IMG/VR virus record: IMGVR_UViG_3300048541_000085
Span: 1 to 57,599 of that record
Length of the DNA stretch: 57,599 nucleotides
Reading direction: 5' to 3' (one strand)
Source of the DNA: a virus
Lineage: Duplodnaviria; Caudoviricetes
Of the stretch, positions 5,857 to 56,651 are shown piece after piece; within the stretch, counting starts at the first letter, position 1; every line of letters starts with the position of its first letter. The notes under the pieces are model-generated. The model ran no database searches, had not been told where the DNA came from, and saw only the letters and a program-made list of their open reading frames with translations. The position numbers were made by a program, and so were the translations under genes.

Positions 5857-5888
5857 GGACGACAGTAGTATTTTTATATAGTTACAAT
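5857..5888 (+). promoter_or_regulatory. Putative late promoter GGACGAC-N19-TACAAT
   Basis: Intergenic, upstream of the capsid gene; same motif and spacing recur at several other sites. Confidence 0.7.
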
Positions 5889-6020
5889 GAGGCTGTGGCA
5901 GATGCTACGGCCTCATTTATGTCACAGACGAAACTCGGCAATATTCGCTGATAGACGAAGGAAGCTAGAGGATAGTCAACTAACCATACTCGAAAACCCA
6001 TTTTGGCAAGGAGAAATACA

Positions 6021-7202
6021 ATGACTGCCATTCAAGGACTTCGTGGGACTGGTCAGTTTACATCTGACTTCCGTCCTACCAATTACCGGGAGCTTTTCAC
6101 GCTCCTAGAACCAAACGGCACTGCGCCGTTGCAGGCTCTGTTAGCCATGACTGGCTCGGAGAGCACAGATGACCCTAAATACAACCACTTCCGTGATGAG
6201 TTGCCTGACCGGACGCTGACTACTTCAGCTACTGTAGGTGCCGCCGCAACATCTGTTGTTTACACAAACGATGATGATGAGGCTTTCATTGTGGCTGGAA
6301 CATTGATTTATGTCCCAGAAACTGGTGAAGTAATTCGGGTAACTGCAAACAACACCACAACCAACACACTTACTGTTACTCGTGGCGTTGGCCAAGCTGG
6401 TACTGGTCAGGCGATTACGTCTGGTGCAGAACTGGTTATTGCTGGTCATGCTGACCAAGAAGGTGGCACTAGCCCCGACCCAATCAGCTTCGACCCAACC
6501 ACTGACTTTAACTATACTCAGATTTTCAAGACGAGTATTTCTGTTAGTGGAACTCTGCAAAACACCTATCTACGGACTGGTGATAAAGAGCAAGAGCAAC
6601 TTACTAAAGCCCTAAAACTTCACATGGGTGATATTGAGCGTGCAATGTTCTTTGGTCGCAGAGACGAAGTGAACGGTACAACTGCAAACCCAACTCGTTA
6701 CACTGGTGGCTTGTTCGCAAGCATCACTAATGTTTCCGATGCGGCTTCAGCATTTGCATCAGCTAACACCATCACAGAGAAAGAGTTCGACCGCCTGCTG
6801 GTGGAAGACATCTTTGCTTACGGCTCAAACGAAAAGATTATGTTTGCTGGCCCACGCTGTGTCTCTAACTTGATGGAAATCGGCAAAAACCGTTGGCAAC
6901 CAACCTCTATCGACAACGCATACGGCGTGTCATTCACTCGTTACACCACATTTGCTGGTGACTTGCTTGTGTATATGCACCCAATGTTCCGTCAGGTAGC
7001 TGGTCTGGAAAAGCAGGCTGTTGTTCTTGATATGCCTCACCTGAAGTATCGCTACCTCGAAGGTCGCGACACATCATTGGTGCGTGATATCCAAGGCAAC
7101 GACTTCGATGGCGTAAAGCACATGTACATGACAGAGTGTGGTCTGGAAATGACCCATTCAAAAGTACACCACGTTATCAAGAACTGGAACGCAGTGTCCT
7201 AA
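6021..7202 (+). CDS. Major capsid protein (DUF5309/SU10-type, HK97 fold)
   Basis: 393 aa from ATG 6021 after AAGGAG; NYTQIFKTSISVSGT, DIERAMFFG, RYTGGL and TECGLEM motifs; follows the scaffold; terminator downstream. Confidence 0.88.
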   Translation: MTAIQGLRGTGQFTSDFRPTNYRELFTLLEPNGTAPLQALLAMTGSESTDDPKYNHFRDELPDRTLTTSATVGAAATSVVYTNDDDEAFIVAGTLIYVPETGEVIRVTANNTTTNTLTVTRGVGQAGTGQAITSGAELVIAGHADQEGGTSPDPISFDPTTDFNYTQIFKTSISVSGTLQNTYLRTGDKEQEQLTKALKLHMGDIERAMFFGRRDEVNGTTANPTRYTGGLFASITNVSDAASAFASANTITEKEFDRLLVEDIFAYGSNEKIMFAGPRCVSNLMEIGKNRWQPTSIDNAYGVSFTRYTTFAGDLLVYMHPMFRQVAGLEKQAVVLDMPHLKYRYLEGRDTSLVRDIQGNDFDGVKHMYMTECGLEMTHSKVHHVIKNWNAVS

Positions 7203-7203
7203 A

Positions 7204-7235
7204 GGACGACAAAGTGCGCTAGAAAAGCGGATACT
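7204..7235 (+). promoter_or_regulatory. Putative late promoter GGACGAC-N19-GATACT
   Basis: Starts one base after the capsid stop; motif and spacing conserved. Confidence 0.65.
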
Positions 7236-7265
7236 AGAGCCGGGGCAAGTCCTCGGCTCTTTTTT
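7236..7265 (+). terminator. Rho-independent terminator after the capsid gene
   Basis: AGAGCCGGGG-CAAGT-CCTCGGCTCT followed by a T-run. Confidence 0.85.
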
Positions 7266-7280
7266 ATTTAGGAGAAATAA

Positions 7281-7589
7281 ATGTCTGAAGATATCAACGC
7301 TGAAAAGAAAAAGGCGACAGTTACACGCAAAGAGAACCGTGCAAAGGAAGCCGCATCACGGCAGAAGGCATCAGAAAAAGAAAAGAAGATGGACAGCGAT
7401 TTTGTGTACTTCATCTCTTCTAATCCTGAACAGGTCTCTTTTAACATTCGTCTTGCTGGACAGCAGTTCAAGGGAACTTGGGATGACGAGCATGAGTACC
7501 TATGCTGGCGCATACCCCACAAACTAAAAGACAGAATGATGTCTCACTTTTTTGTGAAAGAAAAGCGGATTATCGTAGGGGAAGAGTAG
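7281..7589 (+). CDS. Hypothetical virion-associated protein
   Basis: 102 aa; AGGAG RBS; charged N-terminus. Confidence 0.8.
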   Translation: MSEDINAEKKKATVTRKENRAKEAASRQKASEKEKKMDSDFVYFISSNPEQVSFNIRLAGQQFKGTWDDEHEYLCWRIPHKLKDRMMSHFFVKEKRIIVGEE

Positions 7590-7590
7590 C

Positions 7591-8298
7591 ATGTCATATC
7601 ATTCGTCATCTTCTAGTTCATCTTCAAGCTCATCATCCAGTTCAACTGGGACAACCACTGGCAATGCTTCTAGCAAAGTGTCAAGCACTGACATGGCGAA
7701 GCCAACAGGGGAGCCAACGCATGAAATGGCGGACGGCTCAATACATGTAGGCCCAGTACATCCCAGAGATACAGTTACGAAACAGAAGTCTGACACTGCC
7801 ACTGCTAATACAATAGAGTGGCTGGATAACAATACAGAGGATAGAAATAGACACTCCCCCTCTACACCACACCTGAACTCTCCTCACGCTAGTCTTGAGT
7901 CTTTAGTTTTTCAGGCGTTGCGTAGATACGGAGACATGCACCCCGGCACAGTCGATGGTGAAGTGATGATGATGTTTGTTGAGTTTGCCAATATGGTTAT
8001 TGAGGATTTACGTTCTCACCCGTACTGGGACAACATTGAAATGGATTTCTACACACACCCTCAAGAAATACGAAAAGTTCCTGACAGCATAATGGTTCAG
8101 GGGTTGCTATATCATTATTCGGTACAGCAACAATCGTCAAAAGTTGAAGCATACGGCCCAATGTATTTTAAGGGAATGAACCGCGTTCTTTACAATCGCA
8201 AGTTTGGCAACGCCCCCATTGAAATGTCTCCTTGGGATAGAGGCGTTGGCAATAGGCCATCAGGGGTAAAGTCATACGACACTTCCAGAGGTAACTAA
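7591..8298 (+). CDS. Putative head-tail adaptor (tail tubular A-like) with Ser-rich N-terminal extension
   Basis: 235 aa; position between capsid and nozzle; helical C-terminal domain; poly-Ser N-terminus. Confidence 0.5.
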   Translation: MSYHSSSSSSSSSSSSSSTGTTTGNASSKVSSTDMAKPTGEPTHEMADGSIHVGPVHPRDTVTKQKSDTATANTIEWLDNNTEDRNRHSPSTPHLNSPHASLESLVFQALRRYGDMHPGTVDGEVMMMFVEFANMVIEDLRSHPYWDNIEMDFYTHPQEIRKVPDSIMVQGLLYHYSVQQQSSKVEAYGPMYFKGMNRVLYNRKFGNAPIEMSPWDRGVGNRPSGVKSYDTSRGN

Positions 8299-10091
8299 TG
8301 TCCACAACCTACTCTCCATCTGGCGTAAGGGTAAAGGTATATCCTTACGAAGACTTCCAAGGAATTGATGCCTCAAGAGATGTATCCGCTCTGGACACAG
8401 GGCAGAAACAGCACATGATTGAGATTGAAAATGGTTTTGCCGATTGGAGAGGCACCATTGTTAGAGAAGCTGGCGCAAAACAGCGTACAGAGGGCGACAA
8501 GCTCATCAAGCATCTCAACTTCTTTGGTAGAAACTTGGCAGTATGGGCGCAGAAGGAAGGCTCCGGCATCGCTTTGCAGTCAGAGCGTAGCGCAATAGTA
8601 AATGAAAACATAAACTCCAATACAATATTCCTGACGATAACCGAAAGGGGTAGCGGGTATGACCAAGCTAACCCCCCAACCGTTACCTTCTCAGCCCCAA
8701 CAGCGGATGGTGTTACTCCGTCAGTGGCCACAGGCACGGCGGTCATTGATGCTAATGGAGAGTTGGACAGTATAACAATTACATCTCAGGGTAATGGTTA
8801 CTTACCAGACCCCACGGTAACTGTTGATGCGCCAGCAACTGGCACAACAGCGTTAGTCACCGCGAAGATGGGCACAGATGTAAGGACAAGAACCCATTAT
8901 ATTGAGGGCGCATACCCAGCATCGTCCATTGTCACATCCACAGTTTTTAACAACTCCGCAATGTTCTTCTCTAGGGACAAGACCCCGTATAAGTATGATG
9001 GATTGCAATGGAAGAAAATTGAGGCAGGCTCAGACCCAAGACCAGCTTTCGGAGTTTCTATTCAACGCCGTCTCGCCATATCTGGTGCGCCAGCAAAAAG
9101 AACAGTTATCGACTTCAGCAGAGTTGACCAGCTTGTATTCCCAGAAGACGAAGACCCCGGCTCAACAGATGTATTGAAAGCCGCAGACATTGATATTGGA
9201 AACATTATCGGTACTGCCGATGAAATCAAGGGATTGGGGGTGTTTGAAAACAATCGTCTTGCTGTGTTCACGAATGACCAAACTCTTGTTTACCAGATAA
9301 GCCCAGACCTAACCCAATGGGCAATCGATGACAAGGCGAACATTAAGGTTGGAACCATTAGCCACAACACGATAGCAACAGCAGGCGCAGACCTGATGTT
9401 CTGTTCTCGTGAAGGCGTACACTCTTTAAGACGCTCAGACACAAACGGTATCACGATATTCTCGATACCTATGTCAAACAAGATTGACCTTGTGTACAGA
9501 GAGTATCTTGCTCTCGTCAGGGACAAAGAGCAGATAAACGCTTTCTATGACCAAGACGAAGGCCAGTATCATATATTCTTTCCTGTTTCGGATTTGATTT
9601 GTAAACGCTTAACAATAACACTCAACCCTATGCAGGGTGGAGAAAGTAAATGGTCTTCAGGCACATTCCTCAACGCTACTTGCGGCAGGCAACTGGGAGA
9701 AAACACTCTTCTGGGAACCCCCGGAGGTATATGGGAGCGTTCAGAGATTGAGGACATAGAAGAGTTTAGTCCAGAAATGGTGGTTACTACACCAATACTC
9801 TGGCAAGGGTCTATCAATGACACAAAAGAAAGCTATAGTTTTATATTGCAAGCCACAGGACAGGGCGAGTTACAGGTAGAGGCTTTTGACGAAAGAGGTC
9901 GATACCTTTCAGCATTGCAATTTTTAATTCAAGACGGAGGGGCGGACGACAAATTCCCCGATGTGCCGTTAAATAGACAGTACGAGAGAAGGTTTGAACA
10001 TCGCTATCGTGGTGTTCAGTTTAGATTTACCACGCGAGGCAAGGGGCTCTTGAAGATTATTGGCTTCGCTGTAACCGTAAGGCAGGGATAA
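8298..10091 (+). CDS. Putative tail nozzle / stabilisation protein (tail tubular B / P22 gp10-like)
   Basis: 597 aa, beta-rich; GTISHNTI...LMFCSREGVHSL motif typical of podovirus nozzle proteins; gene position. Confidence 0.6.
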   Translation: MSTTYSPSGVRVKVYPYEDFQGIDASRDVSALDTGQKQHMIEIENGFADWRGTIVREAGAKQRTEGDKLIKHLNFFGRNLAVWAQKEGSGIALQSERSAIVNENINSNTIFLTITERGSGYDQANPPTVTFSAPTADGVTPSVATGTAVIDANGELDSITITSQGNGYLPDPTVTVDAPATGTTALVTAKMGTDVRTRTHYIEGAYPASSIVTSTVFNNSAMFFSRDKTPYKYDGLQWKKIEAGSDPRPAFGVSIQRRLAISGAPAKRTVIDFSRVDQLVFPEDEDPGSTDVLKAADIDIGNIIGTADEIKGLGVFENNRLAVFTNDQTLVYQISPDLTQWAIDDKANIKVGTISHNTIATAGADLMFCSREGVHSLRRSDTNGITIFSIPMSNKIDLVYREYLALVRDKEQINAFYDQDEGQYHIFFPVSDLICKRLTITLNPMQGGESKWSSGTFLNATCGRQLGENTLLGTPGGIWERSEIEDIEEFSPEMVVTTPILWQGSINDTKESYSFILQATGQGELQVEAFDERGRYLSALQFLIQDGGADDKFPDVPLNRQYERRFEHRYRGVQFRFTTRGKGLLKIIGFAVTVRQG

Positions 10092-10092
10092 A

Positions 10093-11925
10093 ATGGCGCG
10101 ATTAAGACAACAGCACCCGCAGAATTATGTCAATTCGGGTAACATTCATACGGATTTTGAAAATGTAATCCGCTACTTAAACGCCGCAGAACTTGGCAAC
10201 AAGACTGTGGGTGAACTGCTGAAGGTTCTATTTAACGAAAGTGGCGACTTCCGTGGCCCAGTTGAGTTTCGGGTAGACAACCAAACAGGCTTGCAGTATC
10301 GCGTTGGTGAGTATGCAAACGATGACGAGGCTTGGATTACCCTCGTACAAATATCTGACCTTCGTGGCCCATCGGGCGCGAACACAGGAACCGTTGAAGG
10401 GCCGCTATTTTTTAATCGCCAAGATAGCGTTGTTTCAACAGGCATCTCTGGCGGTGTTTTTACAATCACAAGCGGAGGAACTGGATACACTGTTGCGCCA
10501 ACAATATCATTCAGCAATCCAGACGGAGACCCCATCAATGGTGTGAACCCATCCGCTACATGTACAATAGATGTCAACGGCCTTGTCGATACAATCACAA
10601 TGGTAAGCCCCGGTTCGGGCTACCTAACGCCACCAACAATGACATTTACGCCACCCACAACTGGTACTACAGCTACTGCAACAGTTACGCTGGGTGCCAT
10701 TGCGGCAACTTCAAATGTAATCTCTTACACATTTGACCCGACAACTGACGACATTGTTGTTTACAAGAACGGCCTGTTGCAGACTGAAAGTGCTCCATCA
10801 AGTGAGTACACAAAAAGTTCTGCCAACAACGAGGTTACGCTTGCGGCAGTACAGTTGGCTGACAAGATTACAATCTACTCAATACGTTCGCAGGCCGTCA
10901 CAAACTTCCGCAGGCTTGACGAGACAATCGCACAGGCCAAGACGAGCGTAACATTTATTCACACAGCAAACGAAAAGCTGTTGGTTTACAAAAACGGTAT
11001 CTTGCAAGAAGAGGGTGGTAATGATGACTACCTGACAAACCCTGCTACCGCCACCATTACATTCACAAGCACACTGATAGTGGGCGACAAGGTTTCCGTT
11101 ATCACAGTTGAAAACCAGTCCTTGAAAACAGTGGCTGGTCTAATGTTTGAAGACGAATACACGGACACAAGTGGATTCATCAGGTATGCAAAACTTGCCA
11201 TAGACAATAACGAAATTCCACAAACAAAGGTTTCCAATCTTGCTACCTCCCTTGCAGGCAAGGCAAACCTTTTGTCATCCAACTCGTCCCCGACATCCCC
11301 AGCTACTGGAGATTTGTGGTTGGATATCTCACAGGTTCCAGCGATTTTGAAGTTCTACGATGGTACGCAGTGGCTAGAGACCTCCCCAGAAAGCTCACTG
11401 CCAACCTTCGTGCAATCAAATGCAAACCAGTACGTTCGTGTGAACGGCACAGGCACTGCGCTTGAGTACGGGGACTTGGACTTCACATCGCTGGTTCCTA
11501 AAACATTCATGGGCGCACAGAACGGTGTTGCCAGCTTGGACAGTAGCTCAAAGATACCTGTTGCCCAGTTGCCTGACATCTTTGCCACAACCACACTGCC
11601 ATTCAAAAATCAGTGGGAAGACACCAGTGCCACAGTGACGAACAAAACATATTTCATAACTCGTGTTTGGAAACAGAAACTCCGTATTGATGGCATCAAC
11701 TACCAGCTATCTGGCGGTACAGCCACCATCCAGCTTTCTTTGGACGGAACTCCCATTTCAGGAACAACCCTAAACGCGACAACAACGAACCAATCACAGA
11801 GCTTTAGCCAGATTATTGAGGTTGACGGAAACACTTCAGGTCGCCGATTGGAGGTCGTGGTAACAAACGCCTCGTCCGCATCTGGCCTTGAGCTTGGTGT
11901 AGCGGCGGCAACACTATCGGTATAG
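10093..11925 (+). CDS. Tail fibre/spike protein
   Basis: 610 aa; T/S-rich; two VYKNG...DY repeats, PTSPATGDLW and NGVASLD..KIP..QLP tail-fibre motifs. Confidence 0.7.
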   Translation: MARLRQQHPQNYVNSGNIHTDFENVIRYLNAAELGNKTVGELLKVLFNESGDFRGPVEFRVDNQTGLQYRVGEYANDDEAWITLVQISDLRGPSGANTGTVEGPLFFNRQDSVVSTGISGGVFTITSGGTGYTVAPTISFSNPDGDPINGVNPSATCTIDVNGLVDTITMVSPGSGYLTPPTMTFTPPTTGTTATATVTLGAIAATSNVISYTFDPTTDDIVVYKNGLLQTESAPSSEYTKSSANNEVTLAAVQLADKITIYSIRSQAVTNFRRLDETIAQAKTSVTFIHTANEKLLVYKNGILQEEGGNDDYLTNPATATITFTSTLIVGDKVSVITVENQSLKTVAGLMFEDEYTDTSGFIRYAKLAIDNNEIPQTKVSNLATSLAGKANLLSSNSSPTSPATGDLWLDISQVPAILKFYDGTQWLETSPESSLPTFVQSNANQYVRVNGTGTALEYGDLDFTSLVPKTFMGAQNGVASLDSSSKIPVAQLPDIFATTTLPFKNQWEDTSATVTNKTYFITRVWKQKLRIDGINYQLSGGTATIQLSLDGTPISGTTLNATTTNQSQSFSQIIEVDGNTSGRRLEVVVTNASSASGLELGVAAATLSV

Positions 11926-11935
11926 GTGTGACACA

Positions 11936-13282
11936 ATGCCAAACGAACGCAAGAACACAACATTATCTGGACAGCCCAGACTTGAAGATAGCTACGGAGT
12001 CCGAGAGGCACTCGATGACTATGGGCCAGTGTCAAACTTCATGCGTTGGTACAACGAAAACGTCATGGGCAAACCAGCACATGATGACGAAATACCCCTC
12101 ATGCCTCCCGGTCTCGGCGGTCTCGGATTTGATGTTCTTAGCAATGACCCAGACAGAAAAACACAACAACAACTTATCGAAGAAGAACGTGAGGCGTTTG
12201 ACGAGATACGAAAGCGCAGGCAATTTAAGGACAGTACCATGAATAATTTAATTGACGGCGATGACATGATGGATTTTGACTTTGCGTCTGCAAGAAAAGA
12301 TACGCAGATGGCGAAGACACAGCCGGGTGACTTGATTATCCCAGCAGAGTTACAGGGCATGAACCCAGAACTTTATCAAGCGTTCCGCGCTGGGTTGTTC
12401 ATGGAGGGCATAGACCCAGACGAATTTACATCTGGCTCTTCCAAAGTAAAAATAAACCCCGTAACTGGAGAAGAGCAATACTTCCTTAACAAGATTGCTA
12501 AGGCTATCAAGAAGACTGTCAAGAAGGTTGCTTCAAACCCCATAGGTCGCACACTAATCAACGTGGGTGCCGCCACACTGTCAGGCGGAAACCCATACGT
12601 TATCGGTGCAACGAACGCATTGACTGCAAAGGCGGCAGGCGCAAACGACACAACAGCCGCCCTGTCCGGCCTTGGTGCTGGGTTTGGTTCCAGCATGATG
12701 AACAACGCCGCAGGCGGTACTGGCGTGATGAGCAAGATTGCTCCCACAGGAACTATCAATAATTCATTGTCCACAGCTTCAACAGGGTTTGGTTCAGGTA
12801 TTACAAACTATGTGAAAACCCTCGGAGCGCAAGGTCTTGCTGGTCTGGGGCAGATGGGCAATTTAGGTAGCACACTAGCTATGAACATAGGTAACACATC
12901 CTTGGCTTCACTAGCTGGAGCGCAGTTGGGTGGCGGGCTTGGCTCTATGGCAGGCATGATGATTTCACCGCCAGCGATGCAGGCCATGCCAGACATGGCA
13001 TCCTTTGCTCAACAAAACGCATCAGCATTACCTAATGTCGCTACAGGCGGAAACTTGCCGTACAGTACAGGGGTGAACTACACATACGCTCCACAAACTC
13101 AAATGCCTTATTTCAACCCAATGATGGGTGGTATGGGTGGTGGGCCTAGCTACGTTTCAGCAGGCATGAACAATCGTGGACAGATGATGAACTACGCCAG
13201 CAACATGTTTGGTAATCGTCTTGCTGAAAATTCAAGACGAAGTGGTCTTTCAGGTTTTGGTCAGGGGATAACATTTTACTAG
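11936..13282 (+). CDS. Putative ejection (internal virion/pilot) protein
   Basis: 448 aa, no Cys, INPVTG motif then an amphipathic helix and G/A-rich hydrophobic segments. Confidence 0.55.
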   Translation: MPNERKNTTLSGQPRLEDSYGVREALDDYGPVSNFMRWYNENVMGKPAHDDEIPLMPPGLGGLGFDVLSNDPDRKTQQQLIEEEREAFDEIRKRRQFKDSTMNNLIDGDDMMDFDFASARKDTQMAKTQPGDLIIPAELQGMNPELYQAFRAGLFMEGIDPDEFTSGSSKVKINPVTGEEQYFLNKIAKAIKKTVKKVASNPIGRTLINVGAATLSGGNPYVIGATNALTAKAAGANDTTAALSGLGAGFGSSMMNNAAGGTGVMSKIAPTGTINNSLSTASTGFGSGITNYVKTLGAQGLAGLGQMGNLGSTLAMNIGNTSLASLAGAQLGGGLGSMAGMMISPPAMQAMPDMASFAQQNASALPNVATGGNLPYSTGVNYTYAPQTQMPYFNPMMGGMGGGPSYVSAGMNNRGQMMNYASNMFGNRLAENSRRSGLSGFGQGITFY

Positions 13283-13723
13283 ATGATAAGAGACGCGGAG
13301 CATGACGATGTTGAAGAGTGTTTGGAATTGGGTCACAGAATGTACTTGGCAAGCCAGTACAGCAGTCTCCCTTGGAGTTCGGAAAAGTGTAGGCGGCTTG
13401 GCCATGCGTTTGTCGAACGCGAAGACCGCTACTTCAAACTTTATGAAAAAGATAATCGCCCAGTTGGCTTCTGTATGGGGGGGATTGAAGACCTCATTTT
13501 TAGCGAAGAGCACATGGGCAAAGAATACTTGTTGTTCACTTCTGAAGAAGTTCCGTTGGTGGGACTAAGGTTAATGAGAGACTTTGAGAAGTGGTGTATA
13601 GGATGGGGTGTTATGGAGATTGATTTTTCCACAACATCGCAAGGAGAAGACGAGCGGTTTGAGGCTTTCGCAAATCGTCTTGGATATCGCCAAGCTGGGC
13701 GGCATTGGAAAAGGAGACTGTAA
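13283..13723 (+). CDS. GNAT-family acetyltransferase-like protein
   Basis: 146 aa; MIRDA...D start, PVGF strand, GLRLMRDFEKW, RLGY motif; located in the ejection cassette. Confidence 0.7.
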   Translation: MIRDAEHDDVEECLELGHRMYLASQYSSLPWSSEKCRRLGHAFVEREDRYFKLYEKDNRPVGFCMGGIEDLIFSEEHMGKEYLLFTSEEVPLVGLRLMRDFEKWCIGWGVMEIDFSTTSQGEDERFEAFANRLGYRQAGRHWKRRL

Positions 13724-14925
13724 TGGGTGACGGGCCAAGCGGTGGTGATAGCGACCAAGTAAACACCACCACCAACACAAACAAAAAAAGCACAGGCACT
13801 GGCAAGACCGTTGCAATGGATAGCTATGAAGTCGAGGCCATGGCCGAAGAGGAAGCCTCAAAAGGCTATAGCTCTGGTTTCTATGGTAATGAAGGTACAG
13901 ACAGTAGCGGCAACCGAGTTTTCAGCGAGACATACAAGTCTGGCAACTGGAACAATGCGCCCACAAAAACCAGAACATATACAGGCACAGATACAGGCTT
14001 CACAAACACAATCATGGGTTCTGCAAACCCCCAAGAAGCCTTGTATGATTACTCAAATAAAGTCCGCTCTGGAACTGCGGGCAAGGTTACAAACGCAGAG
14101 CTAAATGCTTTAGAAGCACAAGGTCTTGATACTTTTGGTATGGGTCTTAGGGGGACAGAAGGTTTTGGTGGCAAGATGGGCCATGATGACTACGGCACTC
14201 CAATGAGCCGACAGTCATACAATCCCGGCTTTTTGAACCAAGGCGGAGACCCCACAGACGAAGCCCAACGGGTAAACAACCCTATGATGTCTGGCTTGGT
14301 CGGCCTTATGGCTGGCATGACACCCATCGGAACAATCGCGAAGGGTGCGCAGATGTTTGGGTTGGCCGACCCAATTGGCTCACCGCCAACCAACATGATG
14401 GGAAAAATATCTGGTGCTCTGACAATGGGTTTAACAAACCCAGCAAACCCTGACTTGTATGATGCTGGTAATTACACGCAAGCAGTTGACAGGGCGGCGG
14501 CTACCAGTCAGATGGGTGTAGAATTTGACCGCTCTAAAGGTTCTATGTTTAGCCCCGGAGGGCAAGACAAAGATAACGAAGCTGGCACAGTAGGGCAAAA
14601 CCTAAACTCTGGCGGTAGCGGTGGAGGCACCTCATCAAGTGGAGGAGGAAGCGGTAGCACCCCTAACTATGATGCGGCGGCAACAGTAACAGGCTTTGAC
14701 ATGAATGGTGGTGGTGCCGGAAACGCGATGGTCAACTACCTTAGTAACATGGGACGAAACAGAAGCACTGGAAATGTTACAGTGGATGCAGACAAACAGA
14801 ACTTCGGCGCGTTCAGAAGGATGAATTTTGACAACTTCAATGTTGGAGACCAGCAAAACTTTGACCTCAGCGATTGGCGTAAGAGTAGACGCTTTGGTGC
14901 TGGGTTCTTTAACATGTTCAAATAG
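13723..14925 (+). CDS. Putative ejection protein
   Basis: 400 aa from ATG 13723 (TAATG coupling, AGGAG RBS); G/S/N-rich, no Cys. Confidence 0.55.
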   Translation: MGDGPSGGDSDQVNTTTNTNKKSTGTGKTVAMDSYEVEAMAEEEASKGYSSGFYGNEGTDSSGNRVFSETYKSGNWNNAPTKTRTYTGTDTGFTNTIMGSANPQEALYDYSNKVRSGTAGKVTNAELNALEAQGLDTFGMGLRGTEGFGGKMGHDDYGTPMSRQSYNPGFLNQGGDPTDEAQRVNNPMMSGLVGLMAGMTPIGTIAKGAQMFGLADPIGSPPTNMMGKISGALTMGLTNPANPDLYDAGNYTQAVDRAAATSQMGVEFDRSKGSMFSPGGQDKDNEAGTVGQNLNSGGSGGGTSSSGGGSGSTPNYDAAATVTGFDMNGGGAGNAMVNYLSNMGRNRSTGNVTVDADKQNFGAFRRMNFDNFNVGDQQNFDLSDWRKSRRFGAGFFNMFK

Positions 14926-14934
14926 GAGTAGACA

Positions 14935-15945: not shown

Positions 15946-15955
15946 GAGGGCTGAA

Positions 15956-16759: not shown

Positions 16760-16767
16760 GTTAAAAT

Positions 16768-19017: not shown

Positions 19018-19117
19018 TATGTTTATGTGGCTCTTAACAATCTTCCAGAGTAACCCTGCTGGAGACCTTTCCAAGCACAGAAAGCACACGGCAAAGTACG
19101 AAGACCTGTGTATGTAG
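19010..19117 (+). CDS. 35-aa hypothetical peptide
   Basis: MSNMFMWLLTIFQSNPAGDLSKHRKHTAKYEDLCM; overlaps the upstream stop and exactly fills the gap before the next promoter motif. Confidence 0.5.
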   Translation: MSNMFMWLLTIFQSNPAGDLSKHRKHTAKYEDLCM

Positions 19118-19120
19118 CAG

Positions 19121-19152
19121 GGACGACCAATGCCCTACACCTTCGGTAAACT
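19121..19152 (+). promoter_or_regulatory. Putative late promoter GGACGAC-N19-TAAACT
   Basis: Intergenic, 27 nt upstream of the giant ORF. Confidence 0.7.
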
Positions 19153-19179
19153 CTATGTATCGGAAACTGGAGTACCGAA

Positions 19180-37141: not shown

Positions 37142-39116
37142 TGCGCTTTATGAGCAGGCCGTAAAAGCTATTGAATTGGGATGGACAGTGTTCCCACTTT
37201 CCGTCTCAAGCAAGAGGCCATTGAATGAATGGAAGCACTACCAAACAAATGCAACAACCCTTGAAGAGGTTGAGGATTGGTTTGAAAACGGTGCGCCCAC
37301 CACCAACGGTAGCCGTGTCAAGTTGTTCAACTTGGCACTGGTTACTGGCGACATATCTGGTGTAGTGGTGCTTGATTGTGACAACGTGGAAGCCGTTGCC
37401 TACGCAAACAAGAACAACCTTGTGTCGCCATTTGCTGTGAAGACCACGCGAGGTATGCACTTTTACTTTTCGCACGGTGGTCACGGGAAGAAGTTCCAAA
37501 ACAAAGTAGGTGGAACTAGCTACGACTGGCCTTCTGTTCATGGACTAGACCTTCGCGGAGACGGCGGGTATGTGGTTATGCCACCATCTGTCAAGACGGA
37601 TAAGGAAGGTAAGGTTGTCCATACATACGAGTGGGACATTGGATACGGTCTTGGGTGGGACGACCTTGAAGATTTCCAGTGGCGTGGCGCACCAACAACC
37701 GTATCAACGGACGCTCTGACGTTCGACACACTTGACCTAACAAATGTTTCCATCCACACGCCTGATGCAAATGCAACCGTATGGGAGCAAACCGAACAAC
37801 GTGTCGCCGTGCTTGGTCGGAAACTACAAGAAGGAGACGGAACTGATGCTTGGATGGTTCGCTTCTGCGGCCAAAAGGTAAGGCAGGGATTACTTGGCAA
37901 AGACCTTGAGCATGTGGTGCGTAACTATTATGCAGAGTTTTTTGTAGATGAGTACCCAAAAGAAGCCACAGAACGCTGGCTTGTGGCCAAAATGCGGTCG
38001 GCAACAGAAATGGATATGCGTAATTACCCCGAACAGTATGACAAAGAGGGTAATCGCACAGACAAAAAGAAAGAGATTGCCGTCATTGATAGCTCTCGGC
38101 TGGTTCCAATCTATGCGGATGCAGTTGAGCGGTTGCTTTCGGAGATGCGAGACGAGGTTTATTGGGTAAACCCATTGATACCTGAAGGCACAATCACACA
38201 GGTTGTGGGCTTCAATGGTCACGGCAAGTCATATTTTCTGTCTGCGATGCTGAACAGCATGGCCGCTGGGCGTGACGAGTTCGGTCCATACGAAACGCCG
38301 AAGCCTGCTAGGGTATTCTATATGGACTATGATAACCCAAGACGGACAGCTTTGCGCAGGCTCCGCGACTTCAATAAAACATTTGGTTACACCAATGAGC
38401 ACTTCGGCCTCTGGTCGCCAACTCTGATTTCATCTGAGGACGGCGGCGAGGTTGACCTCATGACAGAGAAGGGTATCCGTCTTCTTGGCGACTGGCTTGA
38501 TGTTGTTCAGCCGGACATACTTGTGATAGACACAATCCGTAACGCATTTCGTGGGTTGGAAGAGGCAAGCCCGACAGAGTGGGCGAAGGTGAACTTCGTT
38601 GCAAAGCTGGTGCGTAACAAAGGAATATCTGTCGTCTTGGTTCATCACCGAAACAAGCCGGGAGAAAACGGGCTGGGCCGGGAGGCAGGCTCGACAGCAC
38701 AGCTTACAGATGTGGACACACAGGTTTTTGTCACCCAAATCTTTCAAGACAAGACCGAAGTCAAGGCGAAAGCTGGGCTTCTTGATTCAGATTTGGCTGT
38801 GTTTACTCTTGATGGTAAAGAGTACACACCATACGGATACTTGTTGAAGATTGCTGGCAAGGACTCTCGCCTTCAAATGGTCACACAAATATCGTTTGGT
38901 AAGGTGCGACAGCAAACAGAGTTGCATGAAACGCACTACATAGGTTGGTGTGAGAGCCTTGTGACTGGCGATAAATTTATCGTGTCAACAAAATCAAAGA
39001 AACAAAAGGCTCTGTTCTTGAACACTCAGGGATACAACGCCTTCGACATCAGCAGGGAAATCAAAGTTCCCCAAGATGAAATTCGCTCTTGGTTAGGAAT
39101 TGTGGATGCCACTTAA
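37119..39116 (+). CDS. Bifunctional primase-polymerase fused to RecA-type (AAA_25/RepA) helicase
   Basis: GWTVFPL, NLALVTG, VVVLDCD, GMHFYF, DLRGDGGYVVMPPS; Walker A GFNGHGKS, Walker B ILVIDT, VHHRNK. Confidence 0.92.
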   Translation: MTVETLSDALYEQAVKAIELGWTVFPLSVSSKRPLNEWKHYQTNATTLEEVEDWFENGAPTTNGSRVKLFNLALVTGDISGVVVLDCDNVEAVAYANKNNLVSPFAVKTTRGMHFYFSHGGHGKKFQNKVGGTSYDWPSVHGLDLRGDGGYVVMPPSVKTDKEGKVVHTYEWDIGYGLGWDDLEDFQWRGAPTTVSTDALTFDTLDLTNVSIHTPDANATVWEQTEQRVAVLGRKLQEGDGTDAWMVRFCGQKVRQGLLGKDLEHVVRNYYAEFFVDEYPKEATERWLVAKMRSATEMDMRNYPEQYDKEGNRTDKKKEIAVIDSSRLVPIYADAVERLLSEMRDEVYWVNPLIPEGTITQVVGFNGHGKSYFLSAMLNSMAAGRDEFGPYETPKPARVFYMDYDNPRRTALRRLRDFNKTFGYTNEHFGLWSPTLISSEDGGEVDLMTEKGIRLLGDWLDVVQPDILVIDTIRNAFRGLEEASPTEWAKVNFVAKLVRNKGISVVLVHHRNKPGENGLGREAGSTAQLTDVDTQVFVTQIFQDKTEVKAKAGLLDSDLAVFTLDGKEYTPYGYLLKIAGKDSRLQMVTQISFGKVRQQTELHETHYIGWCESLVTGDKFIVSTKSKKQKALFLNTQGYNAFDISREIKVPQDEIRSWLGIVDAT

Positions 39117-39334: not shown

Positions 39335-39664
39335 ATGGGTAAGGCTAGAAGAATTTCGGAGAAAGACCGAAAATATCTAGCCAAGTCGCTCAAAACCGAG
39401 ACACCCTACACAGAAATGGCCGTTCACATGGGCGTATGTGTAGACACACTGAAACGAATACTGCAACGCGAGGGCTTGGCTGAATTTGATGCCGCAAAAT
39501 ACGCGGTTAGCTTGAGCTTTGAGACACAAAAAACATGGGTGAGGCCGTGCATGAGATGCAGGGACGAAGCTCCTCGCCCGAAGTGGCAATATATTTGTGA
39601 CAAATGCAAAGAACGAAACGAACAATATTCTGGTGTGGATGAGGAGTGGTTATGGGAAGACTGA
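39335..39664 (+). CDS. HTH plus C4 zinc-finger protein, candidate transcription activator
   Basis: 109 aa; YTEMAVHMGVCVDTLKRIL HTH; CMRC...CDKC; AAGGAGG RBS. Confidence 0.6.
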   Translation: MGKARRISEKDRKYLAKSLKTETPYTEMAVHMGVCVDTLKRILQREGLAEFDAAKYAVSLSFETQKTWVRPCMRCRDEAPRPKWQYICDKCKERNEQYSGVDEEWLWED

Positions 39665-40098
39665 GCCCAAGAGGAAGCAAGGCGAAGGGCGACAAGTATG
39701 AACGCGAACTCGCCGAGTATTTTAATGAAGCCCTTTATGGTGGAGAACCAAAGATATTCCGAGCCCCGTTGTCTGGCGGAGGACGAAGCACATTCGGCGG
39801 CGGAAGTGCTGACCTAACTGGCACACCGTTCGTCTGGGTAGAGGCAAAGCGCACAGAAAAGTTCGCGCCATACGCCGCAATGGAACAAGCCGAACGTGGA
39901 ATCGCCGGGAAGAAGAGCCGGGATGTCCCGGTGGTAGTATCAAGACGAAACCAGATGACTACAAGCGACAGCTTGGTAGTCATGAGGATGAAAGATTGGA
40001 TTGATATGTATCACTCTTACCTTGATATGAAGGGAGAGCTTTCCAAGGACGACACAGAAGAGACCCCAACGATATACTCAGAGTATGAGGAGATTTAA
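39646..40098 (+). CDS. Holliday junction resolvase (PD-(D/E)xK, Hjc-like)
   Basis: SKAKGDKYEREL, RAPLSGG, ADL, VEAKR, PVVVSRRN. Confidence 0.82.
   Translation: MVMGRLSPRGSKAKGDKYERELAEYFNEALYGGEPKIFRAPLSGGGRSTFGGGSADLTGTPFVWVEAKRTEKFAPYAAMEQAERGIAGKKSRDVPVVVSRRNQMTTSDSLVVMRMKDWIDMYHSYLDMKGELSKDDTEETPTIYSEYEEI
40047..40078 (+). promoter_or_regulatory. Putative late promoter GGACGAC-N19-TATACT
   Basis: In the resolvase 3' end, upstream of GAGGAG and a run of small ORFs. Confidence 0.7.
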
Positions 40099-51273: not shown

Positions 51274-51277
51274 GATG

Positions 51278-51733: not shown

Positions 51734-51747
51734 GAGGTTGGGTTGGT

Positions 51748-52104: not shown

Positions 52105-52170
52105 GATGTATCTCCTTCTGATGCACGTTGGTTCAACTGGCTGACTGCCGAAGCAACAGCCGACCTAAAT

Positions 52171-52197
52171 AGCACTCCCCCTCTCTCTGAGAGGTAG
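52171..52197. repeat. AGCACTCC-N2/3-CTCTCTCTGAGAG hairpin element, copy 2
   Basis: Matches 50422-50449. Confidence 0.75.
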
Positions 52198-52210
52198 GCG
52201 CACATGCGCG

Positions 52211-52242
52211 GGACGATGGGTGGGCTAAGTCCCTGTTATGAT
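52211..52242 (+). promoter_or_regulatory. Putative late promoter variant GGACGAT-N19-TATGAT
   Basis: Same spacing as the other copies; upstream of the terminase operon. Confidence 0.5.
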
Positions 52243-52511
52243 TGGGCATGGTGCTAAGAACCCCCATTGAACCCCGCTTTGTCTGTGCAAATCGAAGATT
52301 TGTAACCAAAGCATCGCCGATTGTCCCTCAATGGGACACAAAAACCGTTGAAAATCAACGACTTGTCGTTGGGTCAGGCAGTTTTGTGACACGGCAAAGC
52401 CGTGTGACGGGCGGGGTGGGGTGCGACCCGCCGCCCGCATGCGTTATCGTGTCATCCGGGCAACCGAATTTTCGCACCAAATTTTGAAAACCTTGTACTA
52501 TAGGAGATACA
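52243..52511. other. Hairpin-dense non-coding region, candidate packaging site / genome end
   Basis: Between divergent early and terminase operons; at least five inverted repeats and a G-rich/C-rich tract. Confidence 0.45.
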
Positions 52512-52901
52512 ATGCCAGCAGTTCGCAAACACCCGCACCCAACAAAAGGCTCAGGCGGATTAACCGCAGTAACGCCAGTTGAGATAGACCGTGTAAGACG
52601 AAGTGTGCTAGATGTAGTAAGGAACAACATTCCACAGGTGCGTGAAGTTCTTGACGGCTCCCGCAAGTGGGACAATCAACAGGTTCGCCTGTTTGGCATG
52701 ATGTTAAACAAGGTAATGCCCGACTTGCACCATAGTTTTAACCAGCACTCGGTCGAGACGAAGGACGTACACGAACTGAGCATAGCGGAATTAGAAGAAA
52801 TAGCCGCCAAATCTGAGGAGATTGAGCCCGATGAGAGTGACGAGAGCCGAAGCGGCGAAATACTTGTTGAAGTTAAAGAAGGCGAAGACCAGCTTTCCTG
52901 A
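52512..52901 (+). CDS. terS: Terminase small subunit (putative)
   Basis: 129 aa directly before terL; LNKVMPDL and LSIAELEEI motifs; AGGAG RBS. Confidence 0.65.
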   Translation: MPAVRKHPHPTKGSGGLTAVTPVEIDRVRRSVLDVVRNNIPQVREVLDGSRKWDNQQVRLFGMMLNKVMPDLHHSFNQHSVETKDVHELSIAELEEIAAKSEEIEPDESDESRSGEILVEVKEGEDQLS

Positions 52902-54468
52902 TTTTGTTAGGGCCATGAACCCCGACTTTGAATTTGCACCCTTCCAACTAGAGCTAATGGAGACCTTAGATGCCCTCGAAAAAGACGAACTCGGTGTACG
53001 AAGACTTCTTATTACTATGCCCCCCAGACACGCCAAGTCTTTCATCGCGACTGTACACTTTCCTGTCTACTATCTGGCCAAAAAGCCTGTCCGCAATGTC
53101 CTCAGCACCTCGTACAATCAGGATTTGGCAAAGACTTTTGGTCGCCAAGTACGCGATTTGGCTCGTGAGCCTATCGTTACTCAGGCGTTCGATGATTTCC
53201 AAATGTCGGAAGAGAGTCGCGCAGTTGATGACTGGCGCACTAGCCTTAACGGCACTTATTTTGCTACTGGCATTGGCGGTTCCACTACGGGCCGTGCGGC
53301 TACTATGCTCATACTTGATGACCCTATCAAAGCCCGTGAGGAAGCTGACAGTGCCACCCAGCGTAACAAAACTTGGTCGTACTATGTATCGGCTCTTACA
53401 ACTCGTAAACAACCTGAGCCAGACGGAACTTCGGCACTGGAAATTGTTATCCTAACACGCTGGCACCCAGATGATGTAGCGGGTCGTCTCATGGAGACGG
53501 AGGATTGGAAAGAGGGAATGTGGAAGCACATAGATTTCCCTGCGATACAGAGAGTAAAAGGCAATGTCAAAAAATCCGTGGCTTCTCTCCCAGAAGATGA
53601 CCCGCGCTTCATTCCGCAGGGTGAGCTCAGTAAGGTCGCCCCATCAAAAAGACACTACAGTGAAGAAAGCGAAGAAGCTCTCTGGCCAGAGCGGTTCCCA
53701 CTTGACGAACTCAAAAAACGAGAAAGACTAGACCCTCGCGAGTTTGCCAGTCTTTACCAGCAATCACCGTATGTAGCTGGGGGAAACCTAATCAAGTCGT
53801 CTTGGTGGAAAACCTATGACCCAGAAGAAACAAACATAACTACGGTTATCATAAGTGCGGACACAGCCTTCAAGAAAAACGAGCGGGCAGACTATTCTGT
53901 TCTTATGACCATCGGCATGGATAACGCTGGTGACATATACATTATGGAGATACGCCGCGAAAAAATGGACTTTCCAGAATTAAAGAGAGCTTGCATAGGC
54001 ATAAACGGAAAGTGGAGAGGAAGAGGCTTGAGGGGTTTTTATGTTGAGGACAAGGCTTCAGGGCAGTCTTTGATACAAGAATTAAAAAACCAATCCGGCA
54101 TGGCGGTCATACCGTACAAGGTTAGTACAGATAAAGTTTCTCGCCTAAACGCTGTCACTCCAATAATCGAGGGTGGCAGAGTTCATCTCCCAAAGACAGC
54201 ACCGTGGGTAGATGCCTTTATGGAAGAGGCTCAATCCTTCCCCTCTGGCAAACACGATGACCAGATAGACGCTTTGTCTATGGGGTTGGATGCAATAAGC
54301 CGTATGGGTGGCGGAAACTTAAACATGATAAACTCTCCCATCGAGCTTTCGGACAGCCTTTACTCGCAATTTGAACCTATTGGCGGGGGGTCATCCCTCC
54401 AATCCCAGTGGTCAGACAGCCTATCGAAGTCTCGTGACAAGAGATTTGTCAACTGGGGCGAGTTATAG
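52831..54468 (+). CDS. terL: Terminase large subunit
   Basis: MPPRHAKS Walker A, LILDDP Walker B, TRWHPDD, ISADTA, VEDKASG, KHDDQIDA nuclease motifs. Confidence 0.95.
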   Translation: MRVTRAEAAKYLLKLKKAKTSFPDFVRAMNPDFEFAPFQLELMETLDALEKDELGVRRLLITMPPRHAKSFIATVHFPVYYLAKKPVRNVLSTSYNQDLAKTFGRQVRDLAREPIVTQAFDDFQMSEESRAVDDWRTSLNGTYFATGIGGSTTGRAATMLILDDPIKAREEADSATQRNKTWSYYVSALTTRKQPEPDGTSALEIVILTRWHPDDVAGRLMETEDWKEGMWKHIDFPAIQRVKGNVKKSVASLPEDDPRFIPQGELSKVAPSKRHYSEESEEALWPERFPLDELKKRERLDPREFASLYQQSPYVAGGNLIKSSWWKTYDPEETNITTVIISADTAFKKNERADYSVLMTIGMDNAGDIYIMEIRREKMDFPELKRACIGINGKWRGRGLRGFYVEDKASGQSLIQELKNQSGMAVIPYKVSTDKVSRLNAVTPIIEGGRVHLPKTAPWVDAFMEEAQSFPSGKHDDQIDALSMGLDAISRMGGGNLNMINSPIELSDSLYSQFEPIGGGSSLQSQWSDSLSKSRDKRFVNWGEL

Positions 54469-54498
54469 GACGACAAACAGCTTAGTTTTTAGGATTAT
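54468..54498 (+). promoter_or_regulatory. Putative late promoter GGACGAC-N18-GATTAT
   Basis: Overlaps the terL stop, just upstream of the portal ATG; spacer one base shorter than the other copies. Confidence 0.55.
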
Positions 54499-54504
54499 TA
54501 TTTC

Positions 54505-56394
54505 ATGTGGTATAAAGATTCAAGTTTAAGCAAAGATGATGTTGTTGTTGACCTGTCTAATTTGATGGAGCCAATAACTGCGTATGAAGACATATCTGAT
54601 ATGCTCACCGAAGACCAAGAGCGAAAGCTCATTGATTATGTTCGGGCGGCATCTCAAATGTCATGGCACAGCATTTCCCGCCGATACGACCATTGGAAGG
54701 ATGCTGACCGTGCCCACGATGTTTGGGTTCCGGCGGATACTACAAAGTTTAGGGAAAAGGCGGTCATTGCTGATACACGGGCAATAGCAGACACAGTTCT
54801 TACATATCAAATGGCGGCATTAGCTGGCCGTAACCCTATGTTTCAGCTTGAGGGATTAAACAGAAAGTCTCGCAAGTCTTCACTAATCCTTGAACGCTTA
54901 CTGCACCAGCACATGAGACGCACAGCAGGCGAGGCTCGTCTTGCTCAACTTCTTCTGGACAGCATCAGGTATGGCTTTGCTCCTACAAAAATTGTGTGGG
55001 ACACAAACGCAAACACTTCAAAGATTGTAAACTTTGACCCAAGAAAATGTTTTCCAGACCCACGAGTCTCGTGGGGTGACTGGGAACAAATGCAATTTAT
55101 TATTTTTACTGACTACGTTTCCACGAACGCTCTTTTGTCTAGCGGCATGTACCCGAAACTGTCCAAGTATCCGGGTCTAAGACGAAAGGCAAACAAGTCC
55201 AGCGGTTGGCTTTCTCACAAGTATTGGAAGGAAGAAGGCCGTGGACTGTCCATAAATCCAGAAGACCCTCGCGGGAACGAAAACGGATTTCACTTCACGC
55301 TCGACCAGTCTCGTACTATCGATGAAATGTGGGTGAGGTTTCAGGGCTATGAAATCGGCGTTCCCTCGGTCGAACAAATTTGGATGTGTGTGACAATACT
55401 AGACGAAGAGGCAGTTATACGTTGCCAGCTAAATCCTTACGGACAGCAGTTCCCGGTCGTTATAGGTGGACTTTATCAAGACAGCCACAAGACTTACAGC
55501 CAATCGCTGTATGACCTTTTACTGCCGCTACACGAAATCAGCACATGGTTGCTACGCTCTCGTATAGATAACGTGCAAGCCGCCCTTAATAACTTAGTCT
55601 TCGTTGACCCTACTCAGGTCTCCGTGCCAGACCTAATTGATAGAAACCCGTGGGGTGTTGTGCGAACTATGCCGGGTGCTAAACCGGGCGATGGTGTCTT
55701 TATCGCTGAAATACCAGACGTAACTCGCGGCCATTGGCAAGATATTGGTGCGATGTCTGACCTAAAACAGCGTATTAGTGCCGCGTCAGATGCCCAGCAA
55801 GGTGTCCCAACCGCCGATGGTGTTCGTACAGCAACAGAAATACAGAGGCTAACTCAGTTGGGCTCACAACGTCTGGGCGTTATTGCTCGCATTATGTCAG
55901 CCACGACTATACGTCCCATGGTTCGCATGATGACTGCCAACCTACAGGATGCTCTTAATGTTGAGGGTAGCCTGAAGATTGACACAGACGGTGCTGGTGG
56001 ACAGCTTCAAGCTATGGCCAACGATGGCTATATCGATTTTGATTCCAGCATGATACAGGGTGATATTGATTACTTGGTAATTGATGGCACGCTCCCTGTA
56101 GAGCCAGCGAGGAACGCTGAGACATGGATGAACATGCTTCAAGTCATGGGCCAAACAGGGCTAAACATGGAATACAACACAGGCAAGATTCTTGAGGAGG
56201 CCATTCGTGCGATGGGCGTTAGCGACATCGAACAGTACAAGGTCTCTCAAGAACAGATGCAACAGCAAGGGCCATCACCTTCACAGCAAATGGCCATGGC
56301 AGAGAAAGCTAGAGGGGCAAGTGTTGTGTCCCAAGAACAACTTATGGAACAAGCGCAAAAAGGAAATGTTGTGCCAATGAGGGAGGCTCAGTAA
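54505..56394 (+). CDS. Portal protein
   Basis: 629 aa after terL; SIRYG, FPDP, NPYG..FP, RTATEI motifs and Q-rich C-terminus. Confidence 0.88.
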   Translation: MWYKDSSLSKDDVVVDLSNLMEPITAYEDISDMLTEDQERKLIDYVRAASQMSWHSISRRYDHWKDADRAHDVWVPADTTKFREKAVIADTRAIADTVLTYQMAALAGRNPMFQLEGLNRKSRKSSLILERLLHQHMRRTAGEARLAQLLLDSIRYGFAPTKIVWDTNANTSKIVNFDPRKCFPDPRVSWGDWEQMQFIIFTDYVSTNALLSSGMYPKLSKYPGLRRKANKSSGWLSHKYWKEEGRGLSINPEDPRGNENGFHFTLDQSRTIDEMWVRFQGYEIGVPSVEQIWMCVTILDEEAVIRCQLNPYGQQFPVVIGGLYQDSHKTYSQSLYDLLLPLHEISTWLLRSRIDNVQAALNNLVFVDPTQVSVPDLIDRNPWGVVRTMPGAKPGDGVFIAEIPDVTRGHWQDIGAMSDLKQRISAASDAQQGVPTADGVRTATEIQRLTQLGSQRLGVIARIMSATTIRPMVRMMTANLQDALNVEGSLKIDTDGAGGQLQAMANDGYIDFDSSMIQGDIDYLVIDGTLPVEPARNAETWMNMLQVMGQTGLNMEYNTGKILEEAIRAMGVSDIEQYKVSQEQMQQQGPSPSQQMAMAEKARGASVVSQEQLMEQAQKGNVVPMREAQ

Positions 56395-56651
56395 TGCCAG
56401 AGCAAAAAGCATATCAGCTAGAGCCACTTACAGGTTTTACGCCGCATGAAAAGAATTATATCAAAGCTCTTATCAGGGAAGCAATCGCAGAGATTCCAGC
56501 ACCTACACCTTCGTCTTGCAACTGTTCAGGGCAAGTTGACGGCGTGTCAAGACGAATCTCAGACCTTGAGGCTCGCTACGTTGAGGACGACAAATACGTT
56601 ATAACTAGGGCAAAATTAGCTGTGTTCATGAAAGAAGAGGGCATAGAATAA
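56394..56651 (+). CDS. Hypothetical protein
   Basis: 85 aa; TAATG coupling at both ends; GGAGG RBS. Confidence 0.7.
   Translation: MPEQKAYQLEPLTGFTPHEKNYIKALIREAIAEIPAPTPSSCNCSGQVDGVSRRISDLEARYVEDDKYVITRAKLAVFMKEEGIE
56585..56616 (+). promoter_or_regulatory. Putative late promoter GGACGAC-N19-CAAAAT
   Basis: 34 nt upstream of the tail-fibre ATG at 56651. Confidence 0.55.

Follow-up and report, generated by a model that had tools for sequence, protein, structure and literature searches.

The virus record and the GGACGAC element

The virus record IMGVR_UViG_3300048541_000085 (Duplodnaviria; Caudoviricetes) was analysed over its whole length of 57,599 bases, referred to below as the window; the record is rated 99% complete and linear. 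It belongs to the CRP-810-type roseophage family (marine podophages), which is described as diverse and globally distributed (PMC11288001). Its closest cultured relative is the Roseobacter phage CRP-810, with a capsid protein identity of 56.7%. The window encodes a major capsid protein, a terminase, a portal protein, tail proteins, an endolysin and a virion protein of 3854 amino acids (aa), together with a block comprising an integrase, CobS/CobT-like proteins, a Cas4-type nuclease, Sak4, a primase/helicase and RusA. The element considered here is the heptamer GGACGAC (hereafter the box), which recurs along this genome in front of a loose -10-like hexamer and is interpreted below as part of a family-wide promoter.

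Two sets of relatives were compared with the window. A capsid-protein scan of viral contigs gave 122 relatives, from which 80 loci (L007-L086; 986,402 nucleotides (nt); capsid identity 61-92%) were kept, and a comparison of five complete genomes comprised the window, three IMG/VR records and CRP-810 (OR671924.1, L087). The terms promoter, sigma, RNA polymerase and terminator have no occurrence in the main text of PMC11288001. Literature searches on GGACGAC, phage and promoter (nothing relevant among the matches listed) and on roseophage, promoter and late genes (nothing on the CRP-810-type family) cannot prove that the motif is unpublished.

Occurrence and conservation of the two-part signal

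Exact copies of the box occur eight times on the plus strand of the window (5857, 7204, 9944, 19121, 37658, 40047, 54468 and 56585) and twice on the minus strand (33400 and 45796), where neither is followed by a -10-like hexamer at the expected distance. Such a hexamer was defined by A at position 2, T at position 6 and at least four of six matches to TATAAT. Counted on both strands, the ten copies compare with a mean of 4.58 in shuffled sequence (standard deviation (sd) 2.38), at least ten being found in 1 of 100 shuffles. The composite motif GGACGAC-N18/19-NANNNT has six matches, on the plus strand only, versus a shuffle mean of 0.63 (sd 0.77, maximum 3); six was reached in none of 100 shuffles, and the reversed composite pattern, used as a control, has no match on either strand of the window. 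When one mismatch is permitted and a -10-like hexamer is placed at N17-20, 13 sites are found on the plus strand and one on the minus strand.

A first-pass annotation of this DNA had listed eight sites of this form (5857, 7204, 9944, 19121, 40047, 52211, 54468 and 56585) as a repeated phage promoter. All of them are present, with the coordinates, spacers and hexamers that it gave, and seven carry the A at position 2 and the T at position 6, the copy at 9944 lacking the T. The enrichment over shuffled sequence that such a promoter would call for is likewise borne out by the counts above. The annotation had also placed four copies within 4 nt of a stop codon, and indeed 5857 lies 3 nt past a TAA, 7204 lies 1 nt past a TAA, 19121 lies 3 nt past the TAG of a short open reading frame (ORF) and 54468 overlaps the TAG of the terminase gene.

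The box is also frequent in relatives. In the 80 capsid loci, the gene strand has 338 copies of GGACGAC and the opposite strand 16, the expectation from base composition being about 68 per strand. An exact box is found 150-265 nt before the capsid match in 68 of these loci and 3-18 nt behind it in 56, some of the misses being loci without the flank. In the five complete genomes the box recurs behind the terminase gene, before and after the capsid gene and near the end of the RusA gene (51-75 nt before the homologous gene end in three relatives). It lies before the giant virion protein gene and 144-150 nt before the end of the homologue of gene 8298-10091 in all five, and 66-69 nt before the end of the small post-portal gene in three genomes besides the window. 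Exact boxes were furthermore found in relatives 126-136 nt before the homologue of gene 14935, and the packaging block is headed by a box in CRP-810 and in one of the IMG/VR records (G003), as it is in variant form in the window. On the complement strand of the CRP-810 record, the syntenic boxes are at 57582, 54984, 52783, 44227, 41248 and 31279. In three relatives the long gene upstream of the giant gene ends at the box, which begins at the base after its stop codon. In the window, a hydrophobic short ORF of about 35 aa (19011-19117) spans the gap between gene 16768-19017 and the box at 19121.

The hexamer follows the box in the family as well. At a distance of N17-20, a -10-like hexamer is present at 39% of 233 unique sites, versus 3-12% at ten control offsets and a background of 1.5% per position. 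The spacers measure 17 (20 sites), 18 (27), 19 (32) or 20 nt (12), and 79% of the hexamers begin with T and 76% have A at position 4. The 17-20 nt from the end of the box to the hexamer bring the centre of the box near -35. Conservation is confined to the 7 nt of the box and the loose hexamer; before the capsid gene, for instance, -10-like hexamers persist in relatives while the spacer sequences have diverged. Conservation in relatives, which had been named in the first-pass annotation as a check, thus takes the form of fixed syntenic box places, diverged spacers and a persistent -10-like hexamer 17-20 nt downstream.

The same annotation had stated that all copies face late genes, which stands in part. 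The sites of the structural arm are indeed on the plus strand, but the label is too narrow: the copy at 40047 and its syntenic equivalents lie in the replication/recombination block and precede small non-structural genes. In the window, a GAGGAG ribosome-binding site and a 42-aa membrane-like ORF (40104-40232) directly follow the start predicted for 40047. The strand bias of the box is strong in the structural arm only and weak elsewhere.

One of the recurrent places is inside a gene. Of 39 unique homologous segments, 32 have an exact copy of the box at 9944, always in the codon frame xxG GAC GAC, while neighbouring synonymous sites vary around it; GAC and GAT codons number 546 and 340 in the plus strand genes of the window. 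One clade (six unique segments, A/I-E-N) has lost this box. The alignment indicates that the 9944 box is held at synonymous sites.

RNA contigs from four runs over positions 1-20000 of the window include left ends at 5912 and 5925 (predicted start 5895), 7248 (7242) and 9989 (9982), that is, 6-30 nt downstream; such contigs cannot show starts, ends or levels, and they are not counted as evidence. The coordinates of the sites and of the features discussed below are collected in Table 1.

Table 1. Box sites, RNA elements and selected genes of the window (positions from the first base of the record)
Feature	Position	Strand	Remarks
Putative promoter before the major capsid gene	5857..5888	+	Box 5857-5863, N19, TACAAT 5883-5888; predicted start ~5895
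Putative promoter just past the capsid stop codon	7204..7235	+	Box, N19, GATACT 7230-7235; predicted start ~7242
In-gene box, 147 nt from the 3' end of gene 8298-10091	9944..9975	+	N19, weak -10 TAAATA
Candidate one-mismatch copy GGACGAA-N19-TACAGT	14752..14783	+	183 nt before gene 14935; weak
Putative promoter before the 3854-aa virion protein gene	19121..19152	+	N19, TAAACT; predicted start ~19159, ATG 19180
GGACGAC inside the primase/helicase gene	37658..37664	+	No -10-like hexamer; probably a chance copy; absent from the first-pass list
Putative promoter in the last 51 nt of the RusA-like gene	40047..40078	+	N19, TATACT; predicted start ~40085
Variant GGACGAT-N19-TATGAT at the head of the packaging block	52211..52242	+	~300 nt before ATG 52512
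Putative portal promoter	54468..54507	+	Box on terminase stop, N18, GATTAT 54493-54498, 6 nt, ATG 54505
Putative promoter 66 nt before the end of the 85-aa gene behind the portal gene	56585..56616	+	N19, CAAAAT; next gene 56651
Two UACG-tetraloop hairpins	4734..4772	+	Cores 4738-4745 and 4761-4768; 51-nt gap before gene 4786-5853
Hairpins of the capsid mRNA 5' untranslated region (5'UTR)	5889..5926	+	Strong lineage-specific hairpin 5889-5914
Family-conserved capsid 5'UTR stem	5894-5900 pairs 5920-5926	+	Cap GC[UACG]GC, core 5904-5911
Predicted intrinsic terminator	7236..7270	+	10-base-pair (bp) stem and T run; begins at the base behind the -10; predicted start in the 5' arm
109-aa protein gene	39335..39664	+	N-terminal three-helix helix-turn-helix (HTH), C-terminal CxxC...CxxC zinc ribbon; candidate box reader
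Major capsid protein gene	6003-7202		
3854-aa virion protein gene	19180-30744		
Terminase gene	52822-54468		
Portal gene	54505-56394		

A proposed phage-specific promoter and its candidate reader

The best explanation of the signal GGACGAC-N17-20-TAnAnT is a family-wide middle/late promoter in which a host sigma70-type -10 element is combined with a phage-specific box, likely recognised by a phage-encoded reader; we put the probability of this reading at about 0.75. A loose A/T-rich hexamer at a flexible distance in a two-part signal is the signature of a sigma-dependent bacterial polymerase, and the downstream hexamer would be read by the sigma70-type host RNA polymerase because of its sequence and its flexible spacing. 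The box, invariant and asymmetric, occupies the usual place of a -35 element (about -38 to -32) and would supply the phage-specific recognition. About 8-10 such promoters would restart transcription along the plus strand. The core of the first-pass proposal, namely a phage-specific promoter with a host-type -10 and a box replacing the -35, finds strong support in the conservation among relatives, and on this comparison the promoter reading appears well supported.

The sites were also compared with other promoter classes. Neither half of the genome is enriched in canonical sigma70-like promoters (19 versus 21.4 and 17 versus 19.7 expected), and the sites do not follow the pattern of a TTGACA-like -35 at 16-18 nt, the invariant word being GGACGAC. 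They do not resemble promoters of single-subunit phage RNA polymerases either: no polymerase of that family was found in the window, and no contiguous conserved promoter of about 20 bp is present. As regards sigma factors of the extracytoplasmic function (ECF) type, the -10 is A/T-rich, and the comparison, which covered the window proteins, found no sigma domain among them.

The first-pass annotation had recognised no phage RNA polymerase or sigma factor, and this held up in scans against PHROG, Pfam and PDB sequences. In particular, no MotA or AsiA family was found among 51 window proteins compared with PHROGs and 46 compared with Pfam, and no sigma domain was found at an expectation value (E) <= 5 among 14 small window proteins. 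A polymerase or sigma factor could nevertheless have escaped recognition, hidden in the 3854-aa protein or in a small ORF, and read the promoters itself. Large parts of the genome are indeed without a family match, among them the 3854-aa protein, for which no sequence match was found in Pfam, PHROG or PDB. The place of its gene is taken in relatives by genes of 3753-3800 aa, and in CRP-810 by three annotated genes (gp34-gp36), one of them an internal virion protein D. These annotations as internal virion proteins speak against the idea, a virion RNA polymerase in the 3854-aa protein has no support by sequence, and a TAnAnT hexamer at a varying distance of 17-20 nt is typical of the sigma-dependent bacterial polymerase and not of single-subunit phage polymerases. 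A hidden phage polymerase or sigma factor is thus considered highly improbable.

On the promoter reading, the reader is most likely a phage-encoded DNA-binding protein, and the best candidate, on circumstantial grounds, is the 109-aa protein with an HTH and a zinc ribbon. Its gene is part of the early rightward operon and immediately precedes the first box of this operon, so that the boxes would fire only once the protein is made, which would give a cascade. The gene is core: all five complete genomes have it, in each case flanked by the primase and RusA genes. The CRP-810 homologue is an unannotated ORF (OR671924.1, about 14044-14316, complement) between gp22 and gp23, with 44% identity to the window protein (tblastn, E 5e-21). 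Across 28 homologues (43-83% identity), the four zinc-ribbon cysteines and seven residues of the third helix (C35, D37, T38, K40, R41, L43 and R45) are invariant. HTH matches of the 109-aa protein are weak; HTH_38 matches 13 of the 28 members of the set. In the structure model, three helices are followed by a small ribbon, and the best fold match is the Hin DNA-binding domain (E 0.8), with sigma region 4 domains at E 1.4-2.9, from which the modelled fold would be described just as a small HTH.

The position of the gene relative to the boxes was compared in 80 loci gathered with the 109-aa protein, 68 of which have enough downstream sequence. Of the 68, 61 have a box between -150 and +900 nt relative to the gene end, and the box density rises along these loci, with 22 copies in the 418,079 nt that precede the gene and 111 in the 291,670 nt that begin with it.

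Other candidates and matches were examined and set aside. CRP-810 gp13 (GerE/LuxR HTH) was rejected as a universal reader, having no homologue in the window (best tblastn E 0.76; BLASTP E 0.018 to the syntenic 163-aa window protein). A PDB profile match to 8vd6_A (E 2e-09) was also discarded, being the sum of five weak repeats with individual E of 5.8-18; a paper on de novo protein design cites this entry, a repeat protein. In a protein atlas, a neighbouring cluster of which 33% of the members belong to the GcrA family scores 0.93, which is a lead only, and a HMMER match to GcrA was found in none of the 28 homologues.

Several observations weigh against the promoter reading or its proposed reader. 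No good hexamer is present at N17-20 at 61% of the 233 unique sites, and those behind the in-gene box at 9944 and its homologues are poor (TAAATA, TATCAA, TAAGTA), which makes the role of that box uncertain. The 80 capsid loci share ancestry, so their counts are not independent. Boxes are less biased in loci centred on the 109-aa gene (133 on the gene strand versus 78 on the opposite strand) and in one of the genomes compared (G001; 16 versus 7 on the other strand). The 109-aa protein is linked to the box by position and conservation only; its structure model has a moderate mean confidence (predicted local distance difference test 73.2), the fold search with this model gave no match at E <= 0.001, and a Cro-like protein (36872-37141) and other core early proteins are possible readers too. 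Finally, at 5859 and 40049 the end of the box and the base behind it read ACGACA, a 4/6 match to the canonical -35 at a spacing of 18 nt, so that host sigma70 might play a direct part.

This last point leads to an explanation without any phage protein, in which a host sigma factor would itself recognise the box as its -35, either the housekeeping one with a deviant ACGACA-like -35 or an alternative one. The base behind the box is A in 129 of the 233 unique sites, as that hexamer would have it, and the family scans recognised no phage sigma gene. However, the two leading Ts of the canonical -35 are never there, and an invariant GGAC extends upstream of ACGACA. An exact heptamer kept across phages with capsid identities of 57-75% is unlike a loose housekeeping -35, and the A/T-rich -10 is unlike that of ECF-type promoters. 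A portal-protein scan of genome contigs matched a single 8-kb contig of a metagenome-assembled genome, which does not amount to a usable host genome. Direct reading by a host sigma factor is accordingly regarded as unlikely.

Two further regions were noted in the window. A divergent intergenic region (36768-36930) leads into the small gene of the Cro-like HTH protein, whose likely true start is the ATG behind AAGGAGAGG; this gene is the first of the rightward operon and is kept in four of four relatives. The region and the gene are probably the lysis-lysogeny switch. Between the leftward block and the packaging genes, about 400 nt (52105-52511) are non-coding and include a G/C-rich inverted-repeat region near 52385-52440; they may hold a packaging, attachment or origin site.

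Portal junction, capsid flanks and comparison with known systems

At the terminase-portal junction, a box overlapping or abutting the terminase stop codon was found in 9 of 16 unique junctions, 36-43 nt before the portal ATG. In eight of the nine box-bearing unique junctions, and likewise in the window and in CRP-810, 5-8 nt separate a -10-like hexamer from this ATG; the hexamer of the ninth junction (L008) is ambiguous. The other 7 of the 16 junctions are without the box, and in most of these the two genes abut or overlap. With the hexamer 5-8 nt from the ATG, there is no room for a ribosome-binding (Shine-Dalgarno) site. The portal promoter would start transcription at or next to the ATG, and the portal mRNA is probably leaderless, as suggested by promoter geometry. 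The first-pass annotation had raised a leaderless portal mRNA from the window alone, and the idea gains support from the same geometry in 9 of 16 unique junctions and in CRP-810.

Behind the capsid gene, the predicted promoter is fused to a terminator. The hairpin at 7236-7260 is the top-ranked terminator match in the window. Among 35 unique sequences of the after-capsid site, all have a hexamer with A at position 2 and T at position 6, the spacers differing, and in all of them a hairpin of 8-14 pairs with a T-rich tail begins 0-1 nt past the -10. A start about 7 nt past the hexamer would fall within the 5' arm of the terminator. Transcripts of the capsid gene could thus stop at this terminator, and those from the promoter at 7204, being without the 5' arm of the stem, could not form it and would read through.

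Before the capsid gene, 42 of 45 unique sequences have a core-enclosing covarying stem that begins 1-9 nt past the -10, where the 5' end of the mRNA is predicted, and the capsid promoter would start at the foot of this conserved 5' hairpin. The core of the hairpin belongs to a second recurrent element. In the 80 capsid loci the gene strand carries GCYACGGC 259 times and the opposite strand 35 times. The word precedes the capsid gene by about 110 nt and also stands as a tandem pair about 1,300 nt upstream of that gene, ahead of the gene at the scaffold position (355 aa; 4786-5853 in the window), where the second hairpin adjoins the Shine-Dalgarno site. The hairpin has the form NNN-C-GC[UACG]GC-U-N'N'N'. 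Its three flanking pairs, whose sequences vary widely, are formed in 69-71 of 76 cases; the mismatch reads C.U in 57 of these 76 and C.C in 14, and two pairs of the alignment fold show double changes in 14-15 of 33. No Rfam family was found in the window at the gathering score, the UACG hairpins included. The UACG hairpin may stabilise mRNAs or bind a protein (operator).

In several lineages (L018, L037, L038, L049, L050 and others), the pre-capsid box is itself part of the upstream terminator hairpin, as its loop or its 5' arm, and the T run of that terminator leads into the -10, so that terminator and promoter share 40 nt.

In a further explanation, GGACGAC would be another strand-specific signal (RNA processing, antitermination, packaging or recombination) and the hexamer a by-product of the terminator flank. 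Many copies are indeed located at gene ends beside hairpins; the box coincides with part of an upstream terminator in some relatives and the after-capsid hexamer abuts the terminator stem. However, the hexamer is also kept at terminator-free sites, such as those of the portal gene, the giant gene and the RusA end. A at position 2 and T at position 6 at a distance of 17-20 nt are moreover the signature of a -10, and the portal ATG follows the hexamer by 5-8 nt, with no ribosome-binding site, in eight of nine box junctions and in CRP-810. We therefore consider a signal of this other kind very unlikely.

A more far-reaching version of the promoter reading can be formulated, in which the 109-aa protein is a new monomeric "-35 reader" that replaces sigma region 4 at about ten promoters per genome, combined with a terminator-embedded start, a leaderless portal mRNA and UACG hairpins recognised by a protein. 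Taken as a whole, this version is tentative and rather doubtful.

The family-wide promoter with a phage-read box would have several partial counterparts. In T4 middle promoters, the MotA activator acts with AsiA by "sigma appropriation" at a box centred near -30. As in T4, the host sigma70 -10 would be kept here, with a phage-specific box standing in for the -35, and an early phage protein is proposed to be needed to read it. Unlike in T4, the box has a different sequence and sits further upstream (about -38 to -32, with its centre near -35); no MotA or AsiA relative appeared in the PHROG or Pfam scans, and the candidate reader is of no described family.

The promoters dependent on lambda CII, Mu Mor/C and P2 Ogr require an activator and combine poor -35 regions with a usable -10. 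A phage activator at or beside the -35 creates a temporal cascade in these systems, as is proposed here. Their sites are repeats or dyads for oligomers, whereas the present site is a single asymmetric heptamer. Mu Mor is a weak fold match to the model of the 109-aa protein (rank 40, E 3.1), which is no evidence of kinship.

Like the leaderless lambda cI mRNA from PRM, the predicted portal transcript starts at the A of the start codon, without a Shine-Dalgarno site. Unlike in cI, leaderlessness is deduced here from promoter geometry alone, and the portal design alternates within the family with a direct stop/start coupling of the terminase and portal genes.

A defined promoter word would allow a map of transcription units to be drawn for hundreds of uncultured genomes and would serve as a simple handle for marine metatranscriptomes. 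It also provides a testable pair, consisting of a 7-bp site and a small protein that falls into no described family. Two compact regulatory designs, the putative terminator-embedded promoter and the putative leaderless start of the portal gene, could be tested directly in the cultured phage CRP-810.

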